Assembly: GCA_965207225.1 (NCBI GenBank)
Contig: CBDBLV010000005.1
Location: 1,824,001 to 1,888,000 of the forward strand
Source: Dehalococcoidia bacterium
GTDB lineage: Bacteria > Chloroflexota > Dehalococcoidia > Plut-88900
Direction of reading: 5' to 3'
DNA: 64,000 bases
Shown here: piece after piece, positions 492-34,590 of the stretch
Numbering within the stretch: the first letter of the stretch is position 1
How the letters are laid out: every line of letters begins with the position of its first letter
Program-made: the position numbers and the translations under genes
Notes under the pieces: model-generated
What the model saw: only the letters and a program-made list of their open reading frames with translations
What the model was told of the DNA's origin: nothing
Databases searched by the model: none

Positions 492-506
492 ATCGCCCCC
501 GCTGCC

Positions 507-1202: not shown

Positions 1203-1258
1203 AATCTAGTCCTGATGCTGGTTGGTAGAGACGGCAACCGTGATACCAGACCGACGAC

Positions 1259-18600: not shown

Positions 18601-21600
18601 CGGTAGTCGAGGTTGGCGCTGGCGTCGACGGTGACCGTGACCGATCCGTCGGGCTCGTCCACCTCGTCGTTGGTGGTGGCCACCGTCAGCGCGGCGTAGC
18701 CCGCCGACGGGATGGTCACCGTCCGATGTTCCATGGATATCCCGGAGTCGTCGCTCTGCGACACCGTGACGCTCACGTCCAGGTCCGCAGCCGGGGCCGG
18801 GTTGGCGCTGACCGTGAAGGTCGCGTCCCCGCCCTCGGTCACGTTGCCGTCGGCGGTCACGCTGATCAGCGGCACGGACGTGTTGGGCGCGGGCGTCTCG
18901 AAGTCCACCGTGAAGGTCTTCGGCGTCGCGCCGGCGGCCAGGGTCCGCACGGTGATCTTGTCCAGCTGGGTCGTCCCGTGAAGGACGGAGACCACGTAGT
19001 GCGACTGCGGGTCGAGGCCGGTGAGCTGGTGCTCGGTGGCGGTGGTCGTGACTTCCGTCAGGACCGGGACGCCCGTGAAGCTCTCGTGCCAGACGACCAG
19101 GTAGGACGCGCCGTCCCCCTGCGGCTTCCAGGCGACGGTCGCCGTGGTGTCGGAGACGCGCTTGAGCTGCACCGGCGGCGGCGGCGGCAGGTCGTTGTTG
19201 GCGATATAGACCGAGGCGTAGCTCCTGAACCTGTTCAGCCGGTAGCCCTCGCCGAACTGCACCGTCGCGCCGAGCATCCCGTTGGAGCCCCAACCGGTGT
19301 CGTCGACGGTGGGGATGGTGAACGAGACGCTGCCGCCGGTGGGCACGTTGACCGTGCGCTCGCCCAGGTGCTGGGCGGCGACCACGGAGCCGGGGCCGGC
19401 CACGCCCACCCTGACGTCCAGCGGCGCGTCGGGCGCGGGGTTCACGGTGACCGTGTAGACCGCGTCCTCGCCCTCGGTGATGGTGCCGCCGGCGGCGCTG
19501 ATCGACACCTCGGGCACACGCTCCACGATGACCGACGTGGGCTCCGCCTCCACCGGCGAGCCCGCCGCAAGCGTGGTGAAGCGAATCACCGGGCTGGCGG
19601 TGCTCAGCTGCGTCGCGCCGTGGTCGGCGTAGTAGACCACCGCCCGGTACTCGGTGTCCGGCTCCAGGTGGCGGATGTTCCAGGCCGGGTCGTTGGGCTC
19701 GGCCCCGAACCAGGCCTCGTCGGCCGGGACGCCGGGGAAGGGCGACGTGGTGGACCAGTAGCGCACCTCGTAGCCCTCGGCGCCGACCACCTGAGGCCAG
19801 CTCAGGTCGATGCCCGTGTCGGACAGGTTGGCGTAGCTCAGGTCGCCCACGCGCTCCACCACCGGGTCCGGCAGGTCGCCCAGCAGCCGCTGGCAGCCCA
19901 CGCAGGAGCCCAGCGTGCGGTGGAAGCTGAAGCTGTCGGTGCGCACCGTCTTCGGCGGCGTCTCCGTCGAGATCTGGTTGTCGCTGCGCTCGTACAGCTT
20001 GTAGCCCTCGACCTGGAAGGTCACGTTGCCGACCACGTTGGCGCCGACGTGGACGTCGACCTGGACCGGCGTGCGGCCGACCGTGACCGAGCCGGCGCTG
20101 ACGGCAGAGTCAGTTCTGAAGGTGTGCAGGTGCGATGCGGCGGGGCTGGTGAACCAGACCCGGTGGGACCGGAAGTACTCCGACGTGCCGCTCCGCAACA
20201 GCGGCTCGGCGAAGTCGGCGCTGATGGAGAAGCGCTTGTCCTGGTCCGCCGGCGGGTCGTTCTTCGTCCGCACCCAGAAGTAGTGCGCCTTGCGCCCCGT
20301 GTTCAGCGAGGCCGGGAAGGCCAGATTGAGCCCGCCGTCCTCGATGGACGTCCAGGTGGTCCCGTCGTCGATGGAGAACTCCAGGGTCTGCTCCCACTCG
20401 TCGTCGTCCCTGATGATGAGCGGCACCTGCACCTCGGGGTAGTCGAAGCCTCCCACCTGGTACAGCACGCCATTTTCATAGAAGTTGTGGCCGACGGCGT
20501 GGGGCCGGTGGATCAGGAACGTCCCGTGGTCGAAGGCGTCGCTGTCCTGCCCCGCGGCGAGGCTCACCGGACGCCACTTGTTGGCGTCGCTCTCGTAGAC
20601 GGACTGCGACGAGAAGGGGCAGCCGTCGTGCCGGTCCAGCAGCGGGCCGGCGGTGCTGCCGTAGCCGAAATGAATCCCATCCCGGCCAAGCCCTTCGACG
20701 ATGGGGTCGCCCAGGTTGTAGGGGCTGCGGCTCCCGGTGTGGCACATCAGCCGGTCCCGGTCCGGTTTGCCCGGCCCGATGTAGCCGCCGTGGTGGCTGA
20801 GCGGCTCAGCCACCTGGCTGGCGACGTAGAAGTGCCGGCGCTCGTGGGGGTCCACCGCCTGCCACTGGTAGGTCACCGCCGGGCCGCCCTCGGTCAGCGT
20901 GATCGTCGGCGGCGGGTCGTGCCTGTTGTAGTTGGCGATCACCCAGCCCGTCGAGCACGTGTTGCCCGACACCGTGCCCGCGCAGGTGCGGAACTGCACG
21001 AAGGCGTCGGCGGCCCCCAGGTTCAGGCCGATCTTGAGCGCCTCGGAGTGGGTGCTCCAGGAGACGGCGGGGTTGGGGTAGAGCGACCAGGAACTGTGGC
21101 CGTCGCCGATGCTCCAGCCCTCGGGCAGGCGCAGGCCCCGCAGGCGCTCGGAGTTCGACGCGGTGGCGCGAAGGGTGTACGTGCTGTTGGGCTGCACGGA
21201 CGCGTCGTATACGTACACCCAGTAGGTGGTGTTCGGCTCCAGCCGCAGCCCCGAACCGTCGTCGCCCTGGTAGGTGAAGGTGAAGGTCCGATCGGCGCTG
21301 CCCACCGGCATGGAGGGGCGCGCCAGGTCGGCCAGGACGTCGGCGGCGGTACTGCCCGGCGAGCCGCCGGAGCCGGCCCAGATCTGTACCCTCAGATCAC
21401 GGGCGGCGTTGGAGTCGCCGATCTCGGCAAACTCGACGTCGACGCTGTTGAGGCGGTAGTGGCCGCCGTTCTTGCCCGTCGTGAACGACTGCGCGCGGTC
21501 ACGTACGGTACTGGCAGTCGTCACGGTCAACGCCGCGCCGTCCGCCTGGCCCAGGTTGCTCATCACCGCCGGCTCACCGGGCGGCGCGTTCACCGGCGTG

Positions 21601-24600
21601 GGCTCCACCCGGAACAGGGGCGAGATGCCGTAGAACGCGTGGTCCTGGGTGCTCGCGATGGTGTTGTAGCTGATGGGGCCGGTGTCCGCGTCGGTGGTCG
21701 AGAACCGTCCCCGCCGGGCGTTGCTGGCGCCCAGAGGGTTCGCCTCCTTCGCACCGTCGGTCCTGGTGCCCGTCCACGGCCAGTCGTTCGAGGTGCTCCT
21801 CTCGCCGCTCTCGAAGCGCCGGTCCGCCATCGCCCAGTTCTCCCAGGTGTCGGACCAGAAGCCGGCGTTGTTCGCCGCGACGCGCTCGCCGTTCAGCCAC
21901 CAGACCTCCGCGTCCGTGTGCCCGGCGTTGTTGGGGTTGGTCCGGGTGTGGTCCCGGGCGTCCACCGCGGCGGTGGAGCCCACCACCCGGAAGTGGTCGG
22001 CGTAGCGCCGGACGGCGGCGTGCCCGTCGCGGGCCGCCTCCCGCACGTGGGCGTCGTAGACGCCGATGTCGGCGGCGGTGGCGTCGCGGTGGTCTTCGGT
22101 CATGAACAGCAGCCGGAACGTCTCGCCCGCGCCCAGACCGAGCGGCTTCAGCGGCCAGTCGAAGGGCACGGTGTAGGAACCGTCCGCGTGGGGCAGCAGC
22201 CGGCCGTTGACTCCCATCGACAGAGTGGAGCCGCCGACCAGGGTGATCCAGTTGCCGCCCCCCTGCGCGCGGATGCGAGCGTCGTTGTTGATGCTCCAGC
22301 CGGGCGCCGCGCCCTCGTCCTCGGAGTTGCTCTGCGTGAACTTCACCTGGCTGTTGCCTTCCGTGAGTCCGGCTGCGTCCAGCACGACCCAGTAGCGGGT
22401 GTCCGCCTCGAGCGCGACGCCCGGGTGCGTGAAGCTGTACGTGCCGGCCTGCCGGTTCACGAAGGCGGGATTGGCCAGGGTCCCCACGACCGTGCCGGGA
22501 GCCCCGTTGGCACCTTTGTGGACGGTGACCGTCAGCTTGGAGCCGAAGTCCTCGGTGGACCGGTTGAAGGCCACGTCCACGCTGGTCAGGGTGTACCCCG
22601 AGGGGTTGCCGCCGGTGTCGAAACCCTGCGCCAGGTCCACGTGCAGGCCCTGCACCAGGCCGCTCGACTGGCCGGTGTTCTTCACCAGCGCCGGGTCGTC
22701 GTCCCGCACCCGGACCGTCGCCGTCCCCAGCGACGTGGCCAGGTCGTAGTCCGACCCGTCCACCAGCGTCACCGTGACCGAGCCGTGGGCTTCGTCCACG
22801 TCGTCGCCGGTGGTGGGGATCTCCAGCGTCGCGGTGCCCGAGTCCGGGATGGTGACGCTGGTGGGCAGGGTCCCGTACCCGAAGTCCCCGGTCGTGGCCA
22901 CCGTCACGCTCACCGGCAGGTCCGCCGTGGGCGCCGGGACCGCCGTCAGCGTGAAGCTGGCGCTGACGCCCTCGGTGACGGCGCCGCCGCCAAGGATGCT
23001 CACCCTCGACGGCCGCGGCTTGCTGACGCCGTCGAGGCTGATCTTCAGTGACGATACGTTGGGGGTCCACGCGCCCGTCGAGGAAGCCGTTCTCGTCCCA
23101 GCGCCGTCGGCGATGCTCCAGCCGGCCAGGCCCCCGCCGTCCTCGGCGTCCGAACCCGTCAGGCGTACCCTCGAAGAACTCTGGCCAGCGTCCATGTCGA
23201 TCACGAGGAAGTAGGTGGCGCTCCCCTCAAGGTCGATGCCCGCGCTGCTGGTGAAGGTCAGCGTCTGGTCCGAGGTGGAGGCGGGGAAGCTGGCGGGGTT
23301 GGTCAGGGTCCCCAGCGAGCTGCCCGGAGACCCGCCGGAGGCGGCGTGGATGCTGGCGGTCAGCGCCGAGGAGCTGAAGGCGCTGTCGATGGTGGAGAAC
23401 TCCACGTCGACGCTGTGCAGGGTGTAGCCGAAGCTGTTGGAGCCGCTGGTGAACGCCTGGTGGAAGTCATTGCCCAGAAACGAGGTGCCTCCGTCCGCCT
23501 GGCCGGTGTTGGCGACGAAGGTCTCCGTCTCGACCGTCTCGACGGCCGTGCCGTGGATGGTCATCTTGCGGGACTGGCTGAACGAGGTCCAGGCGCCCGA
23601 GGTGTTCCAGGTCCGGTAGTGGCCGTCGTCGGCGATGGTCCAGCCGTCCGCGCCGCCGGCGTCCTCGGCGTCCGACGCGGTGTTCTGGATGGTGTTGGCG
23701 CCGGGCAACAGGACCAGCGTGACGTCCAGCACCGCCCAGTACGTGGTGTTCGCCGCGAGCGCCACGCCCGAGTGCGTGAAGCTGTTCGTGCCCGCGGCGA
23801 TCGTGCCGGGCTTGGTCAGGGTGGCGACCACCGCGCCCGGCGCTCCGCCGCTGTCGCTTCTGATCTCGGCAGCCAGCTTCCCCGCCAGCGCGCCGTCGTT
23901 GATTTGCGGAAACGAGAAGTCGACGCCCGTCAGGGTGTACCCGCCGGCGTTGGCGCCCGTCGTGAACGCCTGCGCGTGGTCGTGCTGTACGAAGTTGCCG
24001 GTGCCGCCGTTCGCCTGCCCGAAGTTGCTCACCAGCGGCGACGGCGTCTTGCTGATACCGCCGAGGCTGAGTTTCATTGACGAGGCGAAGGTGCTCCACG
24101 CGCCCGTTGTGTTCCACGCTCGTCTCGAGAAACCGTCGCCGATGCTCCAGCCGGCCTGGCCTCCGCCGTCCTCGCTGTCCGAACCCGTTAGGCGCATCAA
24201 CGAAGCAGACTCGGCACTGCTTAGATCGATCACCAGGAAGTACGTGGTGTTCGCCTCAAGGTCGATGCCCGTGCTCGTGAAGGTCAGCGTCTGGTCCGAA
24301 CTGGAGACGGGAAAGCTGGCGGGGTTGGTCAGGGTCCCGAGGGAGCTGCCCGGAGACCCGCCGGAGTCGGCGTGAATGCTGGCGGTGAGGGACGAAGAGC
24401 TGAAGCCGCTGGCGATAGCGGCGAATTCCACGCCGACGCTGCGCAGGCTGTAGCCCGCGCTGTTGCTGCCGGTGGTGAACGCCTGGGCGAAATCATATTC
24501 CAAATGTGTCCCAGCTAGGCTTGACTGACCGGTGTTGGCGACGAAGGTCTGCGTCGCCTGCTGCGCAGAGGCTGTTTCAGTCCCTCCAGACAGCAGCACG

Positions 24601-24714
24601 AACAGCGCCGCCGCCAGCAGGGTCAACGTGAGGAAGGTTCTGGCGGGGCGCCTCAATGAAAGAGAACCCCACGAAATGCGGGGGGGGGGTGAAGCTCCGC
24701 AGCGCGTTGGTCAT
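15699..24714 (-). CDS. Giant secreted repetitive adhesin (~3000 aa); ATG at 24714 is out of frame with the body because of a C10 tract
   Basis: Signal peptide (TFLTLTLLAAALFVLL..ASAQ); five xVxNxGQ...AQxFxTG beta repeats; DWPLKP..FRLLF lectin-like segment; FN3 units; many Calx-beta-like EG..FTV..DD..DE.DGSV..TV.V.DND repeats; terminal Calx-beta (GELVFAPG..DDDEEPDEYF). Confidence 0.9.
16051..17358. repeat. Four near-identical 327-bp tandem units (109-aa Calx-beta-like domain)
   Basis: GCGTCGTCGTTGTC recurs at 16051, 16378, 16705 and 17032. Confidence 0.92.
17635..18288. repeat. Two more 327-bp units of the same repeat
   Basis: Unit starts at 17635 and 17962. Confidence 0.9.
24680..24689 (-). 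repeat. Homopolymer tract (C10 on the coding strand) in the 5' end of the adhesin
   Basis: Ten consecutive G on the + strand, 25 nt after the ATG that follows AGGAGG. Confidence 0.9.
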
Positions 24715-24959: not shown

Positions 24960-25334
24960 TTACTGTGGCGTAGCCTGGATGAGGACGCGTCCGCCTCTCT
25001 GGACCCGGATATTCAGGTCGTGGTCATCCAGCAGCCTCATGCCGACCAGTGGAGTGGAATCGGCGGCGCTGGCCCTGGTGTTCCGCAGGCTGTCGTCCCA
25101 CAGCACGGCGACGTCATAGACATCGAAGAAAGCTTCGCTACCGTCGGCCAGAATTGCACGGCTTCGGTCCCGATAGGCCAAGCCCAACTCCCTCACCAGG
25201 TCTGAGGGCAGGGTCAGGAAGCCATTGTATCCCGTGTCTATTACGGCTTCGACTTCCCGTGACCGGCCCGTCGGCCCTTGCACTGTAAGACCGACGACGG
25301 CTTCGTAGGCGGTGTTCACCGTTCCATGGATCAC
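24960..25334 (-). CDS. Clan AA (retropepsin-like) aspartic protease
   Basis: EAVIDTGYNGFLTLP catalytic DTG, LADGS flap, PLVGMRLL; GTGA overlap with the upstream gene. Confidence 0.9.
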   Translation of the reverse strand: MIHGTVNTAYEAVVGLTVQGPTGRSREVEAVIDTGYNGFLTLPSDLVRELGLAYRDRSRAILADGSEAFFDVYDVAVLWDDSLRNTRASAADSTPLVGMRLLDDHDLNIRVQRGGRVLIQATPQ

Positions 25335-25648
25335 TCAGTCCTCCGCAGCGATCCGCCCCCAAAGCTGTAGAGCGCCCTATAGCCGACCCGCAGGCACCAA
25401 ACGTCATAGGCGTCGGGCCGCTGGGATTGCAGCCGGTCCGTAGCGGCAATCTCGTCCGCTCCAATAGCCCAGCTTCCACTCTCCACGTCTATGGCGACGA
25501 CCTCTCCAACATGGTCCTCCTCGACCTGCCGCCGGATGTCTCGCTCGTATATCTGGTCGCCCAACCGCGCCGTCTCTTCTTTAGGACGGCTCGGCGGTGT
25601 CGTGGGCTTGGCGCGCTGGCTGGGTACCGAAGTCTCTGCGTCTCTCAT
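25331..25648 (-). CDS. Small DUF5678-like partner of the aspartic protease
   Basis: RBS GGAGGAGG, ATG 25648; GDQIYERDIR...GEVVAIDVESGSWAIG...LRVGY; TGGTAGAAT extended -10 at 25692-25684. Confidence 0.75.
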   Translation of the reverse strand: MRDAETSVPSQRAKPTTPPSRPKEETARLGDQIYERDIRRQVEEDHVGEVVAIDVESGSWAIGADEIAATDRLQSQRPDAYDVWCLRVGYRALYSFGGGSLRRTE

Positions 25649-25786
25649 GCCTCCTCCCTTCAATGAGCGTTCCCTCGTTCCTAATTCTACCACTCTGCGG
25701 GAGATCCGGACAGCCAGAAAGGGCGGTGCCACAGGGGAAGACAGACCAACCAGCTATGGCCTATACTGCGAGCCTACAGACTTCCC

Positions 25787-25834
25787 AGTCGCATCTCGAA
25801 AACGGTTCTGCCTACCGTCAAAATAGGCCCACCA
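25787..25834 (+). repeat. att-like scar A (48 bp) ending in a tRNA-Ile-like 3' end
   Basis: AGTCGCATCTCGAAAACGGTTCTGCCTACCGTCAAAATAGGCCCACCA; antisense reads GGPILTVGRTVFEMRLGSL*. Confidence 0.8.
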
Positions 25835-25896
25835 AACATTTCACCATGCCCGCGGACCGATGTGCGTCGTCGTCGTTGCGCCGCGTGGAAGGTCTC

Positions 25897-25947
25897 ACCT
25901 ACATCTTCACCGAACCCCGCGTCGGCTACAGGATACCCAAGAGGGAG
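25897..25947 (+). pseudogene. Remnant C-terminus of an OmpR/KdpE-type winged-helix regulator
   Basis: TYIFTEPRVGYRIPKRE matches the terminal YI-x-T-x-x-x-VGYR hairpin; the rest of the gene is absent. Confidence 0.6.
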
Positions 25948-26057
25948 GGGACGGAACGGGGGAGACGTAGGCTGAGGCACTGTCAAATCTTCCGTTTATC
26001 AACCCCTCCACATCACACTACGAGAATGGCGAGCCCTCGGTGTACCGGCACGCCACC

Positions 26058-26109
26058 GAGCCACATCTCGAAGGTGGTAGCATCCACCGCAAGCGGTGAT
26101 GGCCCGTCC
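26058..26109 (+). repeat. att-like scar B (degenerate right half)
   Basis: GAGCCACATCTCGAAGGTGGTAGCATCCACCGCAAGCGGTGATGGCCCGTCC; antisense reads DGPSPLAVDATTFEMWLGG. Confidence 0.7.
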
Positions 26110-26212
26110 TTGCACGATATGGGCTCAGTGGACCGGGCAGACATCCATTCTGGTAGCCATCAGTATTGATGCCGTAAGCCCTTATTCATGCATCCATGAG
26201 CAGGTGAACAAG

Positions 26213-27229
26213 GTGACTGATACTACTACTAGCTACTACGATCTGAGCGTTGAGGATACCTGGATAGAGTACCTTAGAACCAGGTTGCCGTACTCCTTCA
26301 ATCGCATAGAAGTGAAGGGAAACGGTCAATCTAGACACTTCGTGCTGTCGGAACCTGTACTACTAACGGATTTCAATGCAGCTGAACGCCACAATTTTTG
26401 GAGACGCGGAAACGTCTACTACATGTCGGGAAAACTCTTGGACTACTATTCGATGTCTGAAGTCGGCCGAGGCTATCGAATGGCAGAGGTCATGCAACTT
26501 CTAACAGACTCCGGCATTTCGCCGTACAGGTGGCCCACCAATGCATTTGCCTTCTACAACTCGATGCAAATGGAGAAGGTCTGGGGATTTGCGCAAGCTA
26601 ATCATCTTGACAGAGAACGGGTGATGATGACAAACCTCATACTGGCAATAGAATTGTGTCTGAAGGCAGTTGTGACTCATGCCACCTTTCATAAGACGGG
26701 CACCTTCAGATTCGACGCGGGGCACGACGTTGCCAAGCTATACGAAGCCCTGCCCGATTCACTCCGAGACGAAGTAGCCGCGGAGTCCGAGGTGTTCGCC
26801 GAGGAGTACGTGGCATTCAGGGCAAATGTGGAGACCGACATCCGGCGAATCTATGGTCGGCGTCCCTCGCCGCAACATGCCCATCCCAATAGAAAAGAGC
26901 AAGCTGAAGCTGAATGGAGAGAGTTGGCAGAAAGAATTAGGGAGAGTACCTACACGGCCTTCGTGAACAGCAACGATCCTGGCGCGGATAACAAGTACCT
27001 GCACCAAGGTTGGTTCGAGGAAGCCCTGCATCAAGTGAAGCTGGTCAAGAACCCTGGAGACATCAGCCAATACTTTCGGTATGCACCCCACAAGGATAAG
27101 GACGAGCTGCCCACAGACCTCATACATTGGATCCTTCTGTTGGGCCGCTTCATGTACGAGCACCTCTTTCCGGTGCCACGGTCGGACAATGGGCCTTATT
27201 CAGAGTTTCCCGGGTCGGCTAGTGGCTGA
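26213..27229 (+). CDS. HEPN-like domain protein with unknown N-terminal region (start uncertain)
   Basis: NLILAIELCLKA...AGHDVAKLYEALP...YFRY, the ELxLKA / GHD / RY pattern of HEPN domains; more AT-rich than the adhesin region. Confidence 0.65.
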   Translation: MTDTTTSYYDLSVEDTWIEYLRTRLPYSFNRIEVKGNGQSRHFVLSEPVLLTDFNAAERHNFWRRGNVYYMSGKLLDYYSMSEVGRGYRMAEVMQLLTDSGISPYRWPTNAFAFYNSMQMEKVWGFAQANHLDRERVMMTNLILAIELCLKAVVTHATFHKTGTFRFDAGHDVAKLYEALPDSLRDEVAAESEVFAEEYVAFRANVETDIRRIYGRRPSPQHAHPNRKEQAEAEWRELAERIRESTYTAFVNSNDPGADNKYLHQGWFEEALHQVKLVKNPGDISQYFRYAPHKDKDELPTDLIHWILLLGRFMYEHLFPVPRSDNGPYSEFPGSASG

Positions 27230-27460
27230 AGGCTAGTTGTCCCAGACGACCCAAGACCGTCACCCTCTCACTGCCCCAACAAAAGGAATCGCAGGCTCGT
27301 TAGGTGTTGAAGGAGAACCACCCATCCATAAGCGAGTTGTTTAGACAGGTCATCCTTACCTACAGGTTCAGAACGAAGCTCAAGCTGGATGCTCTTCATT
27401 TTGTCGAGTCTGGTGTGGGTACGGGCGTACCGAACTACGAGCTCCGGCTCATAGGCCCCC

Positions 27461-27509
27461 GAGCCACATCTCGAAGGCGGTGCCAGCTACCGTCCATTTA
27501 GGCCCACCA
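27461..27509 (+). repeat. att-like scar C ending in a tRNA-Ile-like 3' end
   Basis: GAGCCACATCTCGAAGGCGGTGCCAGCTACCGTCCATTTAGGCCCACCA; antisense reads GGPKWTVAGTAFEMWLGGL*. Confidence 0.85.
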
Positions 27510-27569
27510 AGAGCCTGGACGGGTTAGAGTGTAGCCGCGTCCCATACGGGGCAGTCCGGTCGAAGGTAG

Positions 27570-27953
27570 CTAGGTCTGCATTATCTGGACCAGATTGCCG
27601 CAGGTGTCGTCAAAGACCGCAATAGTGACGTTGCCCATTTCTGTCGGCTCCATCGTAAAGGCTACGCCCAGGGACTTCAGTTTCTCATATTCTGCGCGGA
27701 TGTCCGTAACGCCAAAGGACGCTGCCGGGATGCCCTGCTCAAATAGCCCTTTCTGATATGCCTGTGATACCGGGTTTGCATCTGGTTCAAGCAGAAGCTC
27801 GGTCCCATCCGGGTCGTCGGGCGAGACGACGGTAAGCCACTTGAATTCCCCCACAGGGACGTCGTGCTTCTTCACAAAGCCGAGGGTTTCCGTGTAGAAC
27901 CTCAAAGCTTTGTCCTGGTCACTTACGAAAACGCCGGTGAGAATAATGCGCAT
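27570..27953 (-). CDS. VOC/glyoxalase family protein
   Basis: VFVSDQDKALRFYTETLGF, WLTVVSP, ELLLEP, FDDTCGNLVQI. Confidence 0.92.
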   Translation of the reverse strand: MRIILTGVFVSDQDKALRFYTETLGFVKKHDVPVGEFKWLTVVSPDDPDGTELLLEPDANPVSQAYQKGLFEQGIPAASFGVTDIRAEYEKLKSLGVAFTMEPTEMGNVTIAVFDDTCGNLVQIMQT

Positions 27954-27980
27954 ATCTGGCCTCCTTTTCTTTTTGTAGTG

Positions 27981-28253
27981 TCACTTGAGCCATCGGTCCA
28001 TGACAGCCCTGAGGGGTTTATCGTTGAAGACAAGCATCCGATACTTGCCGCGCTTCTCTGAGCTTACGAGCCCCGCTTGTTCCAGGAGATCAATGTGCTT
28101 GGCCAGGGCCTGTCGGGAGATGGCGACGTTGTGACGCATGATCAAGCGCGCCGTGAGTTCGTAGAGCGTCTGCTCCTTGCGCTCAGAGAACTCGTCCAGC
28201 ATCAACCTCCGTATTGGATCCGCGAGTGCCCTGAAGACCTGGTCTTTATGCAT
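27981..28253 (-). CDS. ArsR/SmtB family transcriptional regulator
   Basis: VFRALADPIRRLML, ISRQALAKHIDLLEQAGLV..EKRGK. Confidence 0.92.
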   Translation of the reverse strand: MHKDQVFRALADPIRRLMLDEFSERKEQTLYELTARLIMRHNVAISRQALAKHIDLLEQAGLVSSEKRGKYRMLVFNDKPLRAVMDRWLK

Positions 28254-28260
28254 GGACGCA

Positions 28261-28291
28261 TACGATACGCAACCATAGGGTTGCATGTCAA
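28261..28291 (-). promoter_or_regulatory. Promoter with ArsR-type palindromic operator; probably leaderless
   Basis: Minus strand TTGACA-T-GCAACC-CTAT-GGTTGC-G-TATCGT, ending a few nt before the ATG. Confidence 0.7.
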
Positions 28292-28350
28292 GGGGCGATC
28301 CCACAGGCCGGCAGGAACCACATCCCCAGCCAGTCGCAGGAGTGCATATA

Positions 28351-28398
28351 GCGAACTCTCAGCCAAAGGTTGGCGGTACAGGACACGTCGGCCCACCC
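28351..28398 (+). repeat. att-like scar E (divergent variant)
   Basis: GGT-TGGCGGT-ACA-GGACACGTC-GGCCCACCC keeps the spacing of scar C (GGT-N7-ACC-N9-GGCCCACCA); antisense reads GGPTCPVPPTFG*EF. Confidence 0.5.
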
Positions 28399-28511
28399 GA
28401 AGAGAGGCCCGGACTCTCGGTCATGATAGTGGTCCCGGGGCTCACAGCCCGCCGAGCCAAATCTCAAGGACGGGTCTGTCTACCCATGCACGTTGGCGAA
28501 GACGTCGAAAT

Positions 28512-28856
28512 CTAGCCCTGTTGCGAATTTCCGGCGCTGGCCGGATGTGCACCTTGCGCACTGTCCCCCACGGGCTCAAGGCGCAGCCTCAGCCCCAATG
28601 CGGTTGTGACCTTCAACAGGGTTGCCAGGGTAGGGTTGCCGCCGTCAGACAGCGCCTCGTAAAGGTTGCCGCGGTTTAGACCGGTGTTGCGGGCGAGAGC
28701 GCTCATGTTGTGCGTCTGAGCGACATACCTAAGCACTGCCCGAATCACCGCACCGTCACCAGTGTCTTCCTCCGCAGCCGCGCGGAGAAGTCGTCGGAAA
28801 TCCTCTTCGGTCTTTACATAGTCCGCTGGGTCAAATCTTCGATATTCTTCAGACAT
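28512..28856 (-). CDS. Addiction-module antidote (HI1420-like HTH antitoxin)
   Basis: FDPADY...MSALARNTGLNRGNLYEALSDGGNPTLATLLKV..ALGLRL; TAATG coupling to the toxin. Confidence 0.93.
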   Translation of the reverse strand: MSEEYRRFDPADYVKTEEDFRRLLRAAAEEDTGDGAVIRAVLRYVAQTHNMSALARNTGLNRGNLYEALSDGGNPTLATLLKVTTALGLRLRLEPVGDSAQGAHPASAGNSQQG

Positions 28857-29152
28857 TAGCCCCTCCATTCCGTCGCCATTCTCTTGGCCCGTTCGATGTC
28901 TCGCCGTTGGCTGTCCTTGTCACCGCCGCATAACAGGATGATTAGTTCGGCTTCTCGCGTGATGAAGTAGATTCGGTATCCAGGCCCGTACTGAATCCTC
29001 ATCTCGGATACGCCGCCACCTACAGGTCTCACGTCTCCGAGATGCCCGTCTTCGGCTGCCAGCAGTCTAGCGATTATGCGATTTACAGCCTGGTAGTCTC
29101 GCAGCCTGCTCAACCACCGGTCGAAGGTCGCGCTTCTCAGGACCGTGTACAT
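28856..29152 (-). CDS. RelE/ParE-superfamily addiction-module toxin (HI1419-like)
   Basis: FDRWLSRLRD..GHLGDVRPVGGGVSEMRIQYGPGYRIYF..LLCGGDKDSQRRDI. Confidence 0.95.
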   Translation of the reverse strand: MYTVLRSATFDRWLSRLRDYQAVNRIIARLLAAEDGHLGDVRPVGGGVSEMRIQYGPGYRIYFITREAELIILLCGGDKDSQRRDIERAKRMATEWRG

Positions 29153-29160
29153 GGTTCTAT

Positions 29161-29178
29161 TGTACGATATATCGTACA
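29161..29178. promoter_or_regulatory. Perfect 18-bp palindromic operator overlapping the -10 of the TA operon
   Basis: TGTACGATATATCGTACA; minus-strand TACAAT lies 6 nt before the toxin ATG. Confidence 0.8.
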
Positions 29179-29368
29179 GCGCTGTGCAATGAATTCAAGT
29201 GTGGAGGACGCAATGGCAACGCTTTCCGCCCCCAATGCCTCCTTGTCAGCATGGCGGGGAATTGCCCGATGGTCCTACAGCCGGGCCTCCCAGCGGAGAG
29301 TTCGCAGCCCACAGCCCTATTGAGCGAGGTTGATTGAAAGAGGTGTCGATTGCTCCATAGGCGGGCAT

Positions 29369-29416
29369 AGCCACATCTCAAGAATGGCATCGTATACCGC
29401 CCCCTCAGCTTCACCA
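29369..29416 (+). repeat. att-like scar D (48 bp) ending in a tRNA-Ala/tmRNA-like 3' end; probable right island boundary
   Basis: AGCCACATCTCAAGAATGGCATCGTATACCGCCCCCTCAGCTTCACCA; antisense reads GEAEGAVYDAILEMWL. Confidence 0.75.
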
Positions 29417-29501
29417 CGTACCTAATGAGGGGATGACCGCGCTGCTGCCGTAATGACCGGCCAGCGTCCAGACCGGTGACCTGGTTGACCTCTCCCCGAG
29501 G

Positions 29502-29927
29502 TTAGTCTTCTAACATGTAGGCGCCCGTTTCCCAAACCTTCTCATCGCCGCCCGGGGCCCAGTTTACGATGATGGCTCTCAACGGTTCTTCGCTGGTCAC
29601 CCGCATTGCGTGCGACATACTGGGAGGGCAAAAGGTCACTGTTCCAGGTCCGGCATTAAAGGTCTCGTCTCCCCACTCACATTCGGCGGTCCCACTCAGG
29701 ATGATGTAGATCTCGGGCCTGAGGTGGGCGTGGGCGCCATAGTATGTCCCGGGCTCCAGCATGAACGCCGTAGCTGCAATATCCCTGGCTGCTATACCCC
29801 CGTCCCGGCCGATAAGCGGCTTCGAGTACATCGCCTTCAACAACTCTTTGGGGTAGTTGCTGTACGAAGAGAAATTTTCGAGCTCATAGTCCTTGATGTA
29901 GTACTTGCCTTTTTTCTCAGTTGCCAT
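29502..29927 (-). CDS. Cupin domain protein, DMSP-lyase (DddQ)-like motif
   Basis: LEPGTYYGAHAHLRPEIYIILSG...PG....PP...HAM..EPL; RBS AAGGAG. Confidence 0.8.
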   Translation of the reverse strand: MATEKKGKYYIKDYELENFSSYSNYPKELLKAMYSKPLIGRDGGIAARDIAATAFMLEPGTYYGAHAHLRPEIYIILSGTAECEWGDETFNAGPGTVTFCPPSMSHAMRVTSEEPLRAIIVNWAPGGDEKVWETGAYMLED

Positions 29928-30192
29928 CTTTAAACTCCTTGACGGGTGCTGCCGTCTCTTCGGAAACGCTGCCTTAGGTGGCGGGCATTGCTAATGGTAC
30001 ACCTGAAGGGCGGGGCAAGACAGTGCGTAGAGAGCGTACCTCTGGTCTGCCTGTCGTGACTGTATGACAACCTGAATGGACCAGGTTCAAATGAAGTCAA
30101 GGATGACGGTAATTTTGACTTGACAAGTCGGCTTAATGGAATGGATGACAGCGCCTGATTGCCTTCCCTGCGCCTCTGATATACTGCCTGGC

Positions 30193-30342
30193 ATGTTCAC
30201 GGGCATGTTCAGATCGCTGAAGATGTTGTGGAAGTACCCCGAACCCTGGAACGTTCGGCTTTCGCTGTTTTCCCAAAATGTGCTCACAAAGATCCGCCGT
30301 CGGAGCCGATGCTGTGGGAACCTGGGGCAACCGGGATGCTGA
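30193..30342 (+). CDS. Putative 49-aa basic protein ending CCGNLGQPGC, probably leaderless
   Basis: Extended -10 TGATATACT 7 nt before ATG 30193; MFTGMFRSLKMLWKYPEPWNVRLSLFSQNVLTKIRRRSRCCGNLGQPGC*. Confidence 0.55.
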   Translation: MFTGMFRSLKMLWKYPEPWNVRLSLFSQNVLTKIRRRSRCCGNLGQPGC

Positions 30343-30489
30343 GTGGAGGCTAATGGGGCCCTCGGTGAGGGCCACCCGCCACACAGGCACTAGCCAAGAC
30401 TTCATTGCGCTGCGAATTCCTGCCAATCGACCCTTGGGATAGTATGCACGCCGATCAGCGGTTAGTGCTTCCACGGGAGGACTCTCATA

Positions 30490-31707
30490 GTGATAGATGG
30501 TCGGGCCTTAGCGGAGGCGGAGGGCTGGGGGCCGCCGTTCCCCCTTGCTGAATATAAGGGGCGAGTCGAAAAAGTCCGAGAAGAAATGACTCGCAGGGGG
30601 ATTGACGTCCTGCTTGTCTCTTCCCCGCCCAATATCACCTACCTGACGGGCTATGACATGATCTGGTACTACCTGACCAGTCCGGTGAGCGTAGCGCTGC
30701 ACGCAGACTCGGGTCAGACGTGCTTCTTCGAGGTCCCATACCATCGACCAACCGTCGAATGGCATGCCGTCGTGGACGACGCCGTATTGTTCGGGGAAGG
30801 ACAATCGCCGGTCGAGGACATTGCCAGCGAGCTGAAGGCGCGAGGCTGGCTAAAAGGCAACGTGGGTGTGGAGGACTGGAGTCGGGCGCCGGGGGGAGTG
30901 GTAATCAACCAGATAAAGCAGTCGTTTTCTGACGCCGGGGCCAACGTAGTTGACGGGTCCTGGGTTGTGGACAGAGTGAGGTTAATCAAGTCCAAGGCGG
31001 AAATCGAGGTAATGAATAAGGCGGCGTCGATAGCCGATACGGCGATGGAGACGGTAAAGGAGGCCATTCGGCCTGGAGTAACCGAGATAGAGTTAGCGGG
31101 GGTGGTTCTGCAGGCGATGATGAGGGCGGGAGGGGGAGACCCGGCAATTCGTGCGGCAGTCAGGTCGGGGCCGCGCTTTGCTGCGCGACATTGCGCCCCG
31201 AGCCACAGAAAGTTGAAGATGGGCGACCTTGTATGGATCAATCACTGCGGCTCATATCACCGCTACCACGTGGATCTGGGTCGGCTATTTTCGCTGGGAG
31301 AGCCATCGGCGAACTGGCGAGACCTTATGAACAAGACCTGCGGAAGCGTTGATTACGTGAAAGAGAGGGTGAGGCCGGGGGACTCGACGGGGGTGGTCCA
31401 GAGGGCGATGGACGAATACATCAACTCGGTGGGCCTTCGTCAGTATGCCGCATACATCAGCGGTTACAACATGGGCATCGCCATTCCACCGGACTGGGTG
31501 GGGCACACATTTATAGACCCGGAGGCGGGATTCGAGACTGCGCGCTATGATCCGGGCATGATTACCAACTACGAGAACCTGTTCACGGTGTTGGACCCTG
31601 TCTGGGCCGGGGGCACGGGCGGGGGTTTCATAGAGACGATACTTATGACCAATGAGGGACTGGAGGTGCTTTCTAAGCTGGACAGGAACGTTACGGTTAT
31701 CGAATGA
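30490..31707 (+). CDS. M24-fold hydrolase, creatinase/ectoine-hydrolase-like
   Basis: FPLAEYKGRVEKVR, NITYLTGY, RLIKSKAEI, GYNMGIAIPPDW; several prolidase metal ligands are substituted. Confidence 0.88.
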   Translation: MIDGRALAEAEGWGPPFPLAEYKGRVEKVREEMTRRGIDVLLVSSPPNITYLTGYDMIWYYLTSPVSVALHADSGQTCFFEVPYHRPTVEWHAVVDDAVLFGEGQSPVEDIASELKARGWLKGNVGVEDWSRAPGGVVINQIKQSFSDAGANVVDGSWVVDRVRLIKSKAEIEVMNKAASIADTAMETVKEAIRPGVTEIELAGVVLQAMMRAGGGDPAIRAAVRSGPRFAARHCAPSHRKLKMGDLVWINHCGSYHRYHVDLGRLFSLGEPSANWRDLMNKTCGSVDYVKERVRPGDSTGVVQRAMDEYINSVGLRQYAAYISGYNMGIAIPPDWVGHTFIDPEAGFETARYDPGMITNYENLFTVLDPVWAGGTGGGFIETILMTNEGLEVLSKLDRNVTVIE

Positions 31708-31819
31708 CCGGCAGGGTTGTACCTCTGCAAGTATCACTACACGCGATCTCGGGCCTTCCTCTACAAAGCACTCCTCACTCGATATCAGATTAACCCTTTT
31801 AGTCCAGGAAGCGTCTGAC

Positions 31820-31975
31820 ACGTTATAATTACGTTATAGTTGTAATCCAACTTTACCGTAGGCAATACGATAGCTAGATAAGAAAACATTGCCCAAAACA
31901 ATGAATCAGGTTGACAGGGATTTGTGAGTGCTATTCCGGAAGGTGTAGTATACGTGCGTTATAGACCTGTTATAG
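31820..31975. promoter_or_regulatory. Two GTTATA-N5-GTTATA direct-repeat boxes upstream of the PAS-LuxR gene
   Basis: GTTATA at 31822/31833 and 31958/31969, each pair 11 bp apart, in an AT-rich intergenic region. Confidence 0.5.
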
Positions 31976-32105
31976 TGCGTGACCTATGATTTGTGACACT
32001 GTGCGAAAAACAGCGGTGGGTGATGATGGAACGCATCTTTATCCGGTCGATTAATCGTTGCCTGAGCTAAGGGCCCCGAGCTATCAATCCAAAAGGCGGA
32101 GCACG

Positions 32106-32795
32106 TTGAATACTGATTCTCTGATAACTCTTCTGGACTCCCTGCACTCCGGCGCCTACGCCGTATCCCTAGACCAAACAATTATGTTTTGGAATCGGTC
32201 AGCGGAGCGTATCCTGGGACTCCGGTCTCGAGAAGTCGTAGGGCGGCGGTGTTACGATGTGCTGCAGGGCACGACGTCGGGTAGTTTGACTCCCGAGTGT
32301 GTCGGGGGATGCCCTTCTATTCGGTATCTGCGTGCCGGCTTGGTGCCAGCCACAACGAGATTGAGGATGCTAACGGCCTCGGGCGAGCGGAAATGGGTGT
32401 ACGTGACACCATTGGTAATTGGGGGCGCGCTCAGAGATGCACCTGTAGTGGTCCACTTATTTGACGACAGCGCGGAATCGGAGGGGCTGGACAAGGCAAA
32501 GGATATCTTCAGAGACACTCTGACGGAGAGCGGGTCAGAAGTGCTGTCTTATCAGCCGCCTGCCTCAGTCGCGGCAGGAGAGGGGTCTGACCTGTCTCGT
32601 CGTGAATTGGAAGTTCTGCGCCTGGTGGCCCTGGGATGGGAAACTCCGAGGATTGCCACGGACCTAGGGATCAGCCGACACACGGTACGCAACCACATAC
32701 GGAATCTGCGTCACAAACTCAATGCGCCCACCAAGCTGGACGCGGTGGTTAAGGGAATTCGCATGGGGATTCTGCCCATGGGCAGACAGTCCTAG
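32106..32795 (+). CDS. PAS domain LuxR-family transcriptional regulator
   Basis: IMFWNRSAERILG...EVVGRRC PAS; LSRRELEVLRLVALG..IATDLGISRHTVRNHIRNLRHKL HTH. Confidence 0.93.
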   Translation: MNTDSLITLLDSLHSGAYAVSLDQTIMFWNRSAERILGLRSREVVGRRCYDVLQGTTSGSLTPECVGGCPSIRYLRAGLVPATTRLRMLTASGERKWVYVTPLVIGGALRDAPVVVHLFDDSAESEGLDKAKDIFRDTLTESGSEVLSYQPPASVAAGEGSDLSRRELEVLRLVALGWETPRIATDLGISRHTVRNHIRNLRHKLNAPTKLDAVVKGIRMGILPMGRQS

Positions 32796-33023
32796 CAATA
32801 CATGCCCTTTAGCTGCGAAGCCACGGGTTCGGTGGCTGGCAACCGGAACGTCTCCGCCAACAATCTATGGATGAATGCGGCACTGTTTTCGCGGGAGGCC
32901 GGGCCGTCACGAGGACCCCGAGCAGAGTGAACTACCAACTCGACGACTTCAGCCCGCTGTCATAGGCTCGTCTGCAGCAAGTCAGCCGCTCTTCTGCATG
33001 GCCTTGTGTTGCGGTCAATCCGC

Positions 33024-33051
33024 TTGACGCTTCTCTCTGTTTCCTTAGAAT
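33024..33051 (+). promoter_or_regulatory. Sigma70-like promoter for ppcA
   Basis: TTGACG-N16-TAGAAT about 40 nt before the GTG start. Confidence 0.5.
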
Positions 33052-33090
33052 TGCGCTAGTCCAGATTGAACGACCCAAAGCCCCAGGATA

Positions 33091-34590
33091 GTGCCCCAGG
33101 AGGGAAATCCCGTGTTCTTTGTTCCCAAGGTGATGAGCACGCAACACCCCGACAATGCGGCCCCCGCGCCCTTTGCGGATGAGGAAGGGGTGCTGAGGGC
33201 CAATGGAGAGGTAAACGAAGCGTTCCAAATCTTCTCGTTGGGGTGCGATGAGCAGATGTGGGACTCGGAGGGGAAGGAGGCCGACAATCACGTCGTCCAG
33301 AAGCTGCTAACGGGGTACCCGGAGTTTTTCAGAGAGAGGCGGCGCCTGGGTCGGGACGTTGCGCTCACACTACGAGTCCCCAACCCGGGCATAGAGAGGG
33401 ACATGCGTAAGTCGATGGTGGAGGCTCTGCAGAGCGTACCCTCGGCGTGGGACATTGCGCATAGCTTCTACGGCGAAATCGGGGACGATTCGGCACCAAT
33501 TCAAGAGGTGATACTGCCGTTTACAACATCTGCAGAAGAGATCTCGCTGGTAGAGGCGTACTATCGGAACATAATCGTTGGGCAGGAGGGGCAGACGCTG
33601 CCCAATGGCAACCTGGTAAAGGACTGGGTGGGGGAGTTTTATCCGAAATGCCTGCGAGTCATTCCCCTGATCGAAGACATGGAGCACCTGTTCAACTGCG
33701 ACCGCATCCTGGAGGAGTACCTGGAAGGAAGGGACTTGCCGGGTCAGAGGGTGTTCTTGGCCCGCAGCGATCCTGCGCTCAACTACGGCATAGTTGCTGC
33801 GGAACTGGTGCTGAAAGTGGCGCTGGTGCGGCTGCGAGAACTGGAGACGCGTATCGGGGTGCCGTTCTTTCCGATAATCGGGGCGGGGTCGGTGCCTTTC
33901 AGGGGCCATTTGACGCCGATAAACGTAGAGAGGGCGTTGAGGGAGTATCCGAGCGCGTACACGTTCACGGTCCAGTCCGCCTTCAAGTATGACTACGACA
34001 TGGAAGAGGTGAAGAGGGGAATCGACCAGCTCCGGGAGCACAGACCCTGGGAGCCCGTGCCGGTAGATGAGGAACGAGCCATGCGGGTGATTGACAAAAC
34101 GACTGCGGAGTACCAGGAGCGAGTTCGCGACTTGCTGGAAGTTATCAGCACAGTGGCGGGACACGTGCCAAGACGACGGGAGAGGAAACTGCACGTGGGG
34201 CTGTTCGGGTACGGGAGGTCGTTGGGAGGGTTTGGTGGAGCTACGCTGCCTCGGGCGATAGGCTTTGCGGCCTCTCTGTATTCAATAGGGGTACCCCCGG
34301 AGCTGCTGGGGCTTGCGGCCCTGGACGAGGATGACCTTGCGTTCGTACGGGAGACCTGTCCGAGCCTTGACGAGGACTTGCGGGCAGCACTGCGGTTCGC
34401 CAACGAACGGCATGTAATGGAGCTGCTCGGCGAGGGCTACATGCGGATAGTGGCGCAGTTCACGGACGAGCTGGACCGGGTCCACGAGGGATTGACGGGG
34501 GCAGTCTGGGCGGGCATCAGCGGGGATGCGCCGGTGAACATCCAGAACTACGTGCAGGAAGCCGCACACCTAAGGCGCTTCCTGGGGTGA
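33091..34590 (+). CDS. ppcA: Archaeal-type phosphoenolpyruvate carboxylase
   Basis: MSTQHPDN, MWDSEGK, RVPNP, EVILP, VIPLIED, RVFLARSDPALNYG, GAGSVPFRG, TVQSAF, RERKLHVGLFGY, LPRAI; 499 aa. Confidence 0.95.
   Translation: MPQEGNPVFFVPKVMSTQHPDNAAPAPFADEEGVLRANGEVNEAFQIFSLGCDEQMWDSEGKEADNHVVQKLLTGYPEFFRERRRLGRDVALTLRVPNPGIERDMRKSMVEALQSVPSAWDIAHSFYGEIGDDSAPIQEVILPFTTSAEEISLVEAYYRNIIVGQEGQTLPNGNLVKDWVGEFYPKCLRVIPLIEDMEHLFNCDRILEEYLEGRDLPGQRVFLARSDPALNYGIVAAELVLKVALVRLRELETRIGVPFFPIIGAGSVPFRGHLTPINVERALREYPSAYTFTVQSAFKYDYDMEEVKRGIDQLREHRPWEPVPVDEERAMRVIDKTTAEYQERVRDLLEVISTVAGHVPRRRERKLHVGLFGYGRSLGGFGGATLPRAIGFAASLYSIGVPPELLGLAALDEDDLAFVRETCPSLDEDLRAALRFANERHVMELLGEGYMRIVAQFTDELDRVHEGLTGAVWAGISGDAPVNIQNYVQEAAHLRRFLG

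Follow-up and report, generated by a model that had tools for sequence, protein, structure and literature searches.

What brings six short, related sites together within 3.6 kb of a bacterial chromosome, with units of one or two genes between them? The question is raised by a 64-kb stretch of the genome of a Dehalococcoidia bacterium (contig C5, positions 1824001-1888000; hereafter the window, whose first letter is position 1), in which the sites, named S1 to S6, are located at 25787, 26059, 27462, 28351, 28455 and 29369. A preliminary description of this DNA, made from the letters alone, had taken the locus for an integron-like cassette array assembled by site-specific recombination, and had offered as a more conservative reading the collapsed right ends of larger islands integrated in tandem. 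Our analysis supports the sites as recombination sites and site-specific recombination as the process that built the array, and it is the conservative reading that fits best, clearly so for a gene remnant at 25836-26043 and for the interval 28401-28439. We consider it likely that the sites are the distal attachment (att) arms of integrative, conjugative-type elements with large serine recombinases (LSRs) of a CcrB/DsiB-like kind, which integrate at the 3' ends of tRNA genes. The array itself is best read, from comparison of sequences, as a tandem accretion of recombinase-less units and truncated island ends. In what follows G000 is the genome under study (contigs C1 to C5, with L011 and L012 as loci in it), and G001 to G010 and further numbers of this kind are its relatives.

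A dispersed family of sites

A repeat search of the window rendered one family with five copies on the same strand, at 25780, 26052, 27455, 28448 and 29362. The 14-mer AGCCACATCTCGAA, allowing up to 3 mismatches, occurs 18 times in the window versus 5.44 +/- 2.1 times in shuffled sequence, and none of 100 shuffles reached 18. The repeats of the preliminary description are therefore real, and its list had overlooked the site at 28455, which brings the number to six; the length of 48 nt from AG to CCA that it gave holds for 25787, 27462 and 29369. An independent profile, built exclusively from the 17 unique copies found outside the window, recovered S1 (25773-25834, E 7e-15), S3 (27448-27509, E 5e-13), S5 (28441-28497, E 1.5e-7) and S2 (26053-26097, E 5.5e-6). 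Two of the sites listed before need qualification. S6 was found by the repeat search and is degenerate, scoring just E 4.1 with the independent profile. S4 was not recovered by the profile built from non-window copies and by that measure is not a member of the family; a pattern match for it lies at 28368, and it is homologous to the right end of the same gene unit in G001 and G007, where that end has the form GGTT..N..CCCACCAGG, and it has therefore been retained as a divergent site.

An nhmmer search that started from the five window copies found 25 copies at E<0.05, five in the window and 20 on contigs C2 to C5 (18 on the plus strand, seven on the minus strand). With a further model, R1, the family was detected in 11 of the 12 genomes of the bacterial family, at 1-18 matches per genome outside G000. 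Several pairs of sites in the same orientation lie 0.05-4 kb apart in these 12 genomes, and none of the 12 contains a second array of at least four sites within 4 kb. The preliminary description had expected such a scan to return clustered, same-strand copies that differ in cargo between strains and have their breakpoints inside the sites. The differences in cargo and the breakpoints were indeed found in relatives (see below), and the copies turned out to be dispersed over both strands.

Elsewhere in G000 the sites are single ends of elements of 17-28 kb. Copies of the multi-copy elements are identical up to ..GGCCCACCA and differ from the very next base, so that different right partners are joined exactly after CCACCA. 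Three copies of one element share 99-100% identity over 3 kb up to the motif end versus 27-55% in the next 100 nt, and two 28-kb copies (C4:709009-737274 and C5:2003423-2033928, 95% identical) begin precisely where the motif ends. An insertion sequence of 1.89 kb that encodes a DDE_Tnp_1_4 transposase (L011 5169-7059, corresponding to G000 C5:376250-378140) is present in at least 8 copies of 99.9-100% identity, one of them inside an element, 1 kb from the motif end.

Other kinds of repeat were also considered. A structured RNA, a repeat of the repetitive extragenic palindromic (REP) or miniature inverted-repeat transposable element (MITE) type, or a regulatory element unrelated to recombination is close to excluded as an explanation of the sites. 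They are intergenic, and a GGT-N7-ACC hairpin can be drawn in several copies, as such a reading would have it; on the other hand, no Rfam family reaches the gathering threshold in the window, by which a group II intron or other known RNA was rejected, and RNAalifold finds no fold common to 22 copies (its best stem, of 5 bp, is paired in 83% of the cells), by which a hairpin or attC-like fold was discarded too. The exact coincidence of element ends with the motif, and the codon-position pattern described in the next section, also speak for recombination. A TnpB/IS605 right end (guide RNA) was rejected, the genes upstream of the multi-copy motifs encoding PIN, AAA ATPase and cadherin-like proteins and no TnpB.

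A recombinase tail and a tRNA end in the same site

The site is composed of three parts: a copy of a tRNA 3' end (GGCCCACCA, the core), a half-site, X, that starts with a T-loop-like GGTTC, and a 20-nt extension whose reverse strand encodes a conserved LSR tail (..TVFEMWLGGL*). To the right of one copy, on the opposite strand, lies the gene of a 545-aa protein with Resolvase, Recombinase and Zn_ribbon_recom domains (L011:7991-9628, minus strand). The reading frame of this LSR ends inside the motif, whose reverse complement encodes the C-terminal residues of the protein, GGPILTVDRTVFELRLGSL*. In 22 unique copies of the motif this frame reads G-G-P-x-L-T-[VI]-[DG]-R-T-[VI]-F-E-[LM]-[WR]-[LM]-G, with a stop codon at the aligned last codon in nine and one codon earlier in four more. 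The entropy summed by codon position in these copies is 12.6, 7.7 and 14.7 bits, and for the third base of the invariant Gly codon the value is 1.89 bits. The codon-position pattern, together with the LSR frame that ends in the motif, indicates that the left block of the earlier consensus (AGCCACATCTCGAA) is antisense coding sequence rather than a DNA-binding or RNA motif.

In its full form the site is an imperfect palindrome of 52 bp, in which X and a second half-site, Y, flank a 12-bp core (GGTTC..core..GAACC), both half-sites beginning with GGTTC like the T-loop region of a tRNA. LSR att sites are imperfect inverted repeats of 40-50 bp about a central crossover, a form that the site found here shares. 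This 52-bp site is found at seven convergent LSR pairs whose genes overlap across it, and six further copies of the motif carry it without a recombinase. The distance from GGTTC to CCACCA is 25 nt in the X arms versus 19 nt in real tRNAs. According to the published account of serine integrases, the zinc-ribbon motif lies ca. 5 bp further inward in attB than in attP (PMC3783163). The 6-bp shift observed here is close to that value, and by analogy GGTTC may represent the zinc-ribbon motif; the half-sites that we call attP-like or attB-like are accordingly putative ones.

At the convergent pairs (C3:24802-24871 and six similar places) the 3' ends of the two genes overlap by 52-70 bp across the site. 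The paired LSRs are about 63% and 51% identical to the reference LSR, their frames read through the site into similar peptides (VLSTVKSGGPDWTKSRT and VLDFVQSGPPDLTVDRT), and the homology between pair copies ends within about 15 nt of the start codon of the second recombinase, on its upstream side. One recombinase-less 52-bp site is followed by the gene of an 841-aa MmeI-like N6-adenine methyltransferase (L012 7107-9632, G000 C3:12106-14631), a defence-type cargo adjoining the site.

LSR matches, counted at E<=1e-30 across the genomes of the bacterial family, number 36 in G000, a genome of 4 Mb, and 0 to 14 in the others, with none in G005 and G007. Their best NCBIfam match is CcrB, at 132-163 bits versus a cut-off of 900, so that they are not CcrB equivalogs. 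An LSR match lies within 400 nt of 6 of the 20 non-window site copies. The link to tRNAs comes from seven tRNA genes (Ile, Ala-TGC, Lys, Val-TAC, Gln, Val-GAC and Met) whose 3' end is overlapped or abutted by a convergent LSR gene. At five of the seven junctions, those whose X arm the scan lists, the LSR half-site X (GGTTCTGTCTACCGTCAA) continues into a TGGTGGGCC-like sequence, which is the reverse complement of the tRNA acceptor-3'/CCA end, and GGCCCACCA of the motif is therefore a copy of the tRNA tail. The genes that follow the tRNA-adjacent LSRs encode a helix-turn-helix (HTH) protein, Replic_Relax, a type IV coupling protein and a VirB4-like ATPase, and together with the LSR they appear, by their domains, to make up a conjugative-element-like module. 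The 28-kb elements, which have an LSR and conjugation-type genes, end in the motif, and G000 contains in them related autonomous elements that share the att sites.

The array and its units

An LSR gene adjoining the site is found in the family and at none of the six window copies. S1 to S3 are the sites A to C of the preliminary description, S4 is the one that it called divergent, and S5 is new with respect to its list. From left to right the features are as follows.

24960-25732, minus strand: clan AA aspartic protease-like gene and a 133-aa partner without family match, left of S1
25772-25835, plus strand: site S1, with the antisense-tail extension, half-site X (GGTTCTGCCTACCGTCAA) and core GGCCCACCA; its reverse strand reads GGPILTVGRTVFEMRLGSL*
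25836-26043, plus strand: truncated unit, what is left of the 3' part of a gene whose product has an OmpR-type C-terminal domain
26044-26108, plus strand: site S2, with extension, variant X arm and a core of inverted polarity (GGTGATGGCCC, compare TGGTGGGCC); subtype shared with C2:411353, C3:347612 and C2:150546
26096-27229, plus strand: open reading frame (ORF) of 377 aa, family not matched, in the S2-S3 interval
27447-27510, plus strand: site S3, with extension, X arm and core GGCCCACCA; its reverse strand reads GGPKWTVAGTAFEMWLGGL*
27511-28350, minus strand: ArsR/VOC unit, with left arm CACCAAGAGCCTGGACGGG.., VOC/glyoxalase gene (27570-27953) and ArsR-like HTH gene (27981-28304)
28351-28400, plus strand: site S4, right end of the ArsR/VOC unit, GGTTGGCGGTACAGGACACGTCGGCCCACCCG after a diverged tail-coding stretch
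28401-28439: mini-interval of about 40 bp between S4 and S5
28440-28523, plus strand: site S5, with extension, X arm, decayed core of inverted polarity and Y'-like right arm; resembles the intact 52-bp site at C5:1069929
28512-29152, minus strand: toxin-antitoxin (TA) unit, with antidote (28512-28868) and RelE/ParE-family toxin (28856-29152)
29354-29417, plus strand: site S6, with degenerate extension and arm; its core, CCCCTCAGCTTCACCAC, resembles a tRNA-Ala 3' end
29418-33892: downstream flank, cupin and M24 peptidase genes onward; collinear with G008 at 97%, and following the tRNA-Ala unit in G005

Domain searches bore out the earlier assignments of the RelE/ParE toxin with its antidote, of the ArsR-like HTH and VOC/glyoxalase genes, and of the clan AA aspartic protease, and they did not confirm the DUF5678-like gene proposed to the left of S1. 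The 377-aa ORF, previously called a HEPN gene, has no Pfam or NCBIfam match; its translation contains an R-x4-H motif, and the Protein Atlas gives a weak HEPN lead (scores 0.87-0.89). The OmpR-tail remnant has no Pfam match of its own (25836-26043), and its earlier identification stands through relatives: its homologue in G010 and G001 forms the end of a complete HisKA/HATPase/Response_reg/Trans_reg_C gene, with an S2-type site behind it. The S1-S2 unit is a collapsed island end. As to the modules' own promoters, which had also been claimed, promoter-like sites are present upstream of the ArsR-like and the toxin genes, with a palindrome in addition upstream of the TA unit, and the overall count is not above that of shuffles (5 vs 2.9 +/- 2.1).

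These features bear on the integron-like reading, in which a dedicated recombinase would insert promoterless cassettes at a fixed primary site and the ca. 48-bp sites would act as attC. Six same-strand sites between one- or two-gene units, TA and VOC genes as typical cassette cargo, and cargo that differs between strains are what such a platform would produce. However, the genes run in both orientations (the 377-aa ORF on the plus strand, the ArsR/VOC and TA genes on the minus strand), at least two units (ArsR/VOC and TA) have promoter-like sites of their own, and the cores are of two polarities. No integrase is adjacent: the genome has 5 tyrosine recombinase matches (PF00589), 0 of them in C5:1824001-1888000, and no LSR is found in the window either. 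The sites show neither attC-type core ends nor a consensus fold in the 22 copies, in agreement with the earlier observation that they are neither attC nor dif, and members of the family are scattered singly over both strands, where they form the ends of 17-28 kb elements, with no other array of four or more sites in the 12 genomes. A true integron-like platform is therefore, in our opinion, highly improbable, and we return to accretion at tRNA ends as the preferred reading.

What differs between relatives, and where

The region 27504-28482 of the window, which spans both genes of the ArsR/VOC unit, S4 and the left-hand portion of S5, has counterparts of 85-96% identity in four genomes of the genus and, as a second copy, in G000 itself. 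The left boundary of the ArsR/VOC unit always lies one or two bases after CCACCA, and what precedes it varies: tRNA-Ala(TGC) in G005, tRNA-Ala(GGC) in G007, tRNA-Val(TAC) in G001, a tRNA-Ala 3' remnant in G008 and, in the two copies of G000, the motif X-core (S3 and C5:2003473). The unit has two genes, with no recombinase or transfer genes. Its left arm is X'-like and is the one that stands against real tRNA genes in relatives; its right arm is S4. These comparisons indicate that at least one recombinase-less unit, ArsR/VOC, has moved between different targets. It is a complete unit with both arms, the TA pair and the 377-aa gene are probably further ones, and the OmpR tail and the ca. 40-bp interval are truncated remnants.

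The same junctions make it unlikely that the array arose by decay in place, that is, that each site belonged to a former minus-strand LSR gene at its right which was later deleted, the units never having moved as small entities. Such decay would agree with the motif being the 3' coding end of LSR genes, with the LSR remnant that adjoins the motif at C2:88215, and with the LSR remnants that follow tRNA-Ala(GGC) in G004 and G006. But the ArsR/VOC arm starts immediately to the right of S3, in three genomes this arm adjoins tRNA genes that are intact, no LSR remnant being present there, and tblastn finds no LSR fragment anywhere in the window.

The second difference concerns the TA unit (28483-29411), which is missing at the locus in G008 and G005. 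In both, a hybrid site (extension, X, ..AAAATAGACCCAC) runs directly into GTACCTAATG and the cupin and peptidase genes that follow S6. By collinearity, the region 29418-33892 appears to be the ancestral flank on the downstream side of the tRNA-Ala(TGC) locus. On the upstream side of this tRNA in G005, 8.8 kb have a syntenic counterpart in G000, at C1:237202-246056, and there the tRNA end is the starting point of an LSR element; relatives carry tRNA-Ala(TGC) at the array locus, and in G000 that tRNA sits on another contig. From this synteny, the flanks and the last 17 nt of S6, which resemble the tRNA-Ala 3' end, the array would therefore be the far end of a tRNA-Ala(TGC) integration hotspot.

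tRNA-Ala(GGC) appears, from its neighbourhood, to be a second hotspot of the same kind. The distance between this tRNA and a conserved flank in nine genomes (C3:124086-127367 in G000) ranges from 0.23 to 53 kb:

G005, 0.23 kb; G004 and G006, 0.48 kb; G007, 1.2 kb; G002, 1.3 kb
G003, 2.8 kb; G000, 3.3 kb; G008, 36 kb; G001, 53 kb

The flanks diverge directly after CCACCA in all six genomes with a located tRNA 3' end, the G002 locus giving no match, and in G004 and G006 the sequence beyond that point consists of recombinase remnants and an X' arm. Among the tRNA-Ala(GGC) loci of the relatives examined, there was no empty site that exactly matched the G007 insertion.

The sequencing runs were compared through their assembled contigs, in which no excision product was seen. 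Over the VOC/ArsR genes (27565-28328), contig depth in four metagenome-type runs summed to 360-3700 versus 5-170 for the other array units, with the exception of the OmpR-tail stretch 25846-26036 (426-658). The listed variant positions in the VOC/ArsR genes are covered by 4-31 different contigs. For many contigs the match begins at 27574, which corresponds to the VOC gene end rather than to the att arm. The VOC/ArsR gene pair is widespread in the sampled communities, often in other contexts.

To the left of the array, window positions 15699-24656 (minus strand) are occupied by a giant gene for a 2985-aa secreted repeat protein, a paralogue of which matches cadherin/LapA-like proteins, with at least 8 partial or full copies in G000. 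Other copies end with the motif about 140 nt beyond the stop codon; homology of the window copy stops about 50 nt short of the motif position. A shortened copy of the 24960-25732 stretch, together with an S1-like site, stands beside another giant-gene copy (C2:23132-23658). A run of ten G on the plus strand (24670-24690; C10 on the gene strand), ca. 25 nt upstream of the predicted TTG start of the giant gene, is possibly a slipped-strand switch.

How the array may have formed

In the circular form of an element the site would be arranged as extension-X-core-arm, with the LSR gene reading across its own att site, and the far arm would thus carry the last ca. 19 LSR codons on its reverse strand. 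Recombination with a tRNA end would place the LSR and an arm beside the tRNA, the arm restoring the last bases of the tRNA, and after integration extension-X-core would mark the end of the element away from the LSR. LSRs recombine at a 2-bp crossover, which here presumably lies in CCACCA or in the CC before it; the breakpoints seen in comparisons fall directly after CCACCA. Elements that arrived later, whether at this tRNA or at an att site already in place, would push older elements outward, and deletions would then strip recombinase and transfer genes, leaving two-armed units and bare ends. Such units could be moved in trans by any of the many LSRs that the cell encodes at other places in its genome; a circular ArsR/VOC unit would have S4 joined to the CACCAAGAGCC arm.

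Several observations weigh against this reading. The 64-kb window has no LSR gene or fragment, and no tRNA or tmRNA gene, so that the array is tied to tRNA-Ala through synteny with relatives and through a contig break. The core polarity is mixed, S2 and S5 being inverted with respect to S1 and S3, which simple serial integration at one tRNA does not predict; the array therefore did not arise by simple serial insertion, and inversions or exchanges between sites must have occurred. S4, S5 and S6 deviate from the consensus and may be dead. The hybrid site of G008 and G005 is not the simple product of S5 and S6, and the HigBA-type TA pairs that are homologous to the one in the array and occur elsewhere in these two genomes (79-80% identity) lack sites and tRNAs at their flanks. 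For the 377-aa unit, homologous DNA was not found in the 30 relatives searched, and by this comparison the unit gives no sign of movement. Finally, canonical LSRs are described as recombining attP with attB only (PMC3783163), and the junctions here would pair P-type with P'-type, that is two long-type, arms, so that relaxed rules or integration into attL would be needed. As evidence of mobility the HigBA-type homologues were dropped, having neither sites nor tRNAs at their flanks and being uninformative in that respect.

A few contigs join distant positions of the array. One contig of run X8 (depth 8, side of 32 letters) joins 25835, the base after S1, to 28484, in the X arm of S5, on opposite strands, which is what an inversion between sites of opposite polarity would give and is too weak to count. 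In another X8 contig (depth 4.3), 28461 is connected to 29412 by a G008-like hybrid site, and further contig joints lead to 30303/30304 with sides of 30-34 letters; all of these joints, the first included, are weak and may come from other organisms.

The array could also be an instance of something more particular, a serine-recombinase counterpart of cassette exchange with three properties. Recombinase-less units of 0.9-1.4 kb with one or two genes and a complete attP-like site could be shuttled in trans among many tRNA genes; each unit could bring a new mimic of a tRNA 3' end (extension-X-core) as the next landing pad, so that arrays could grow at a distance from any tRNA; and the LSR gene could be split by its own att site, integration and excision swapping its last ca. 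19 codons. That all three hold jointly seems rather doubtful to us. If the last were true, the swapped tail would be a state-dependent C-terminus that could bias the directionality of the recombinase.

A family of LSRs that recognise the conserved T-loop/CCA end of many tRNA genes, that has expanded to 36 matches in a 4-Mb genome and that leaves behind small gene units flanked by att arms would make a puzzling repeat part of a coherent system. LSRs are used as genome-engineering tools, and a tRNA-mimic site, two polarities and an apparently relaxed choice of partners would be of interest at the bench. For annotation, the results imply that a AGCCACATCTCGAA block between genes can represent the 3' end of a recombinase gene, separated from the rest of it, and that such blocks mark island boundaries in this bacterial family.

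Comparison with known systems

The closest parallel is offered by the ssrA islands of Dehalococcoides. As described, these follow a small stable-RNA gene in tandem on its downstream side, have repeats of the 3' end of that gene as their boundaries and insert in the T-loop/acceptor region; a serine integrase of ca. 540 aa, DsiB, is encoded on the reverse strand beside attL with the repeat embedded in its gene (PMC3146451). Islands without the integration module were read there as cis-mobilizable elements (CIMEs) (PMC3146451, McMurdie et al. 2011). The tandem arrangement, the repeats of an RNA-gene 3' end, the LSR on the reverse strand and the module-less units are common to that account and to our results, DsiB being compared by its published description. 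The two systems differ in the target, at least seven different tRNA genes here and ssrA in Dehalococcoides; in the neighbours of the LSR, here HTH, relaxase-like and coupling proteins and a VirB4-like ATPase, which do not match the six-gene integration module reported for Dehalococcoides (DsiB, DsiA, RecF-like, ParB, Mom and a large protein); in the size of the units, down to 0.9 kb here; and in the conserved antisense tail-coding extension on the far arm.

CIMEs in general are presented as elements that have lost integration and transfer genes and kept attL and attR, and accretion as the integration of incoming elements into the att sites of residents, which builds tandem arrays beside a tRNA-type target (PMC5704250). 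A two-armed unit without recombinase or transfer genes, accompanied by related autonomous elements in the same genome, corresponds to that description. Classical CIMEs go with tyrosine integrases and long segments of identity, unlike the present units, which go with an LSR, share only ca. 6-17 nt and have arms that mimic the T-loop and CCA end of a tRNA. The original work on accretion of integrative conjugative and integrative mobilizable elements is said to be that of Pavlovic in 2004. In what a narrow literature search brought up of the papers in question, we did not find descriptions of tRNA-targeting LSR elements with 1-kb recombinase-less units, of many tRNA targets, of tRNA-mimic arms of two polarities, or of a detached LSR tail on the far arm.

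Staphylococcal cassette chromosome mec (SCCmec) and pseudo-SCC elements are moved by CcrAB, which are LSRs, into the 3' end of a conserved gene, rlmH, and form tandem composites that include recombinase-less members. With SCCmec, as it is generally known, the present system has in common the LSRs, the targeting of a 3' end and the tandem islands with recombinase-less members; it differs in having a tRNA, not rlmH, as target, single LSRs or convergent pairs, and a CcrB score below the cut-off. Integron attC arrays are defined by IntI, attI/Pc, GTTRRRY/RYYYAAC ends and a conserved fold. Short recombination sites between small gene units and strain-variable cargo are shared with them, whereas IntI, attI/Pc, such ends and a conserved fold are absent here, and the genes are of mixed orientation with promoter-like sites of their own. 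By analogy with these systems, the array appears to be a small-scale, tRNA-targeting LSR variant of known island accretion rather than a new kind of integron.

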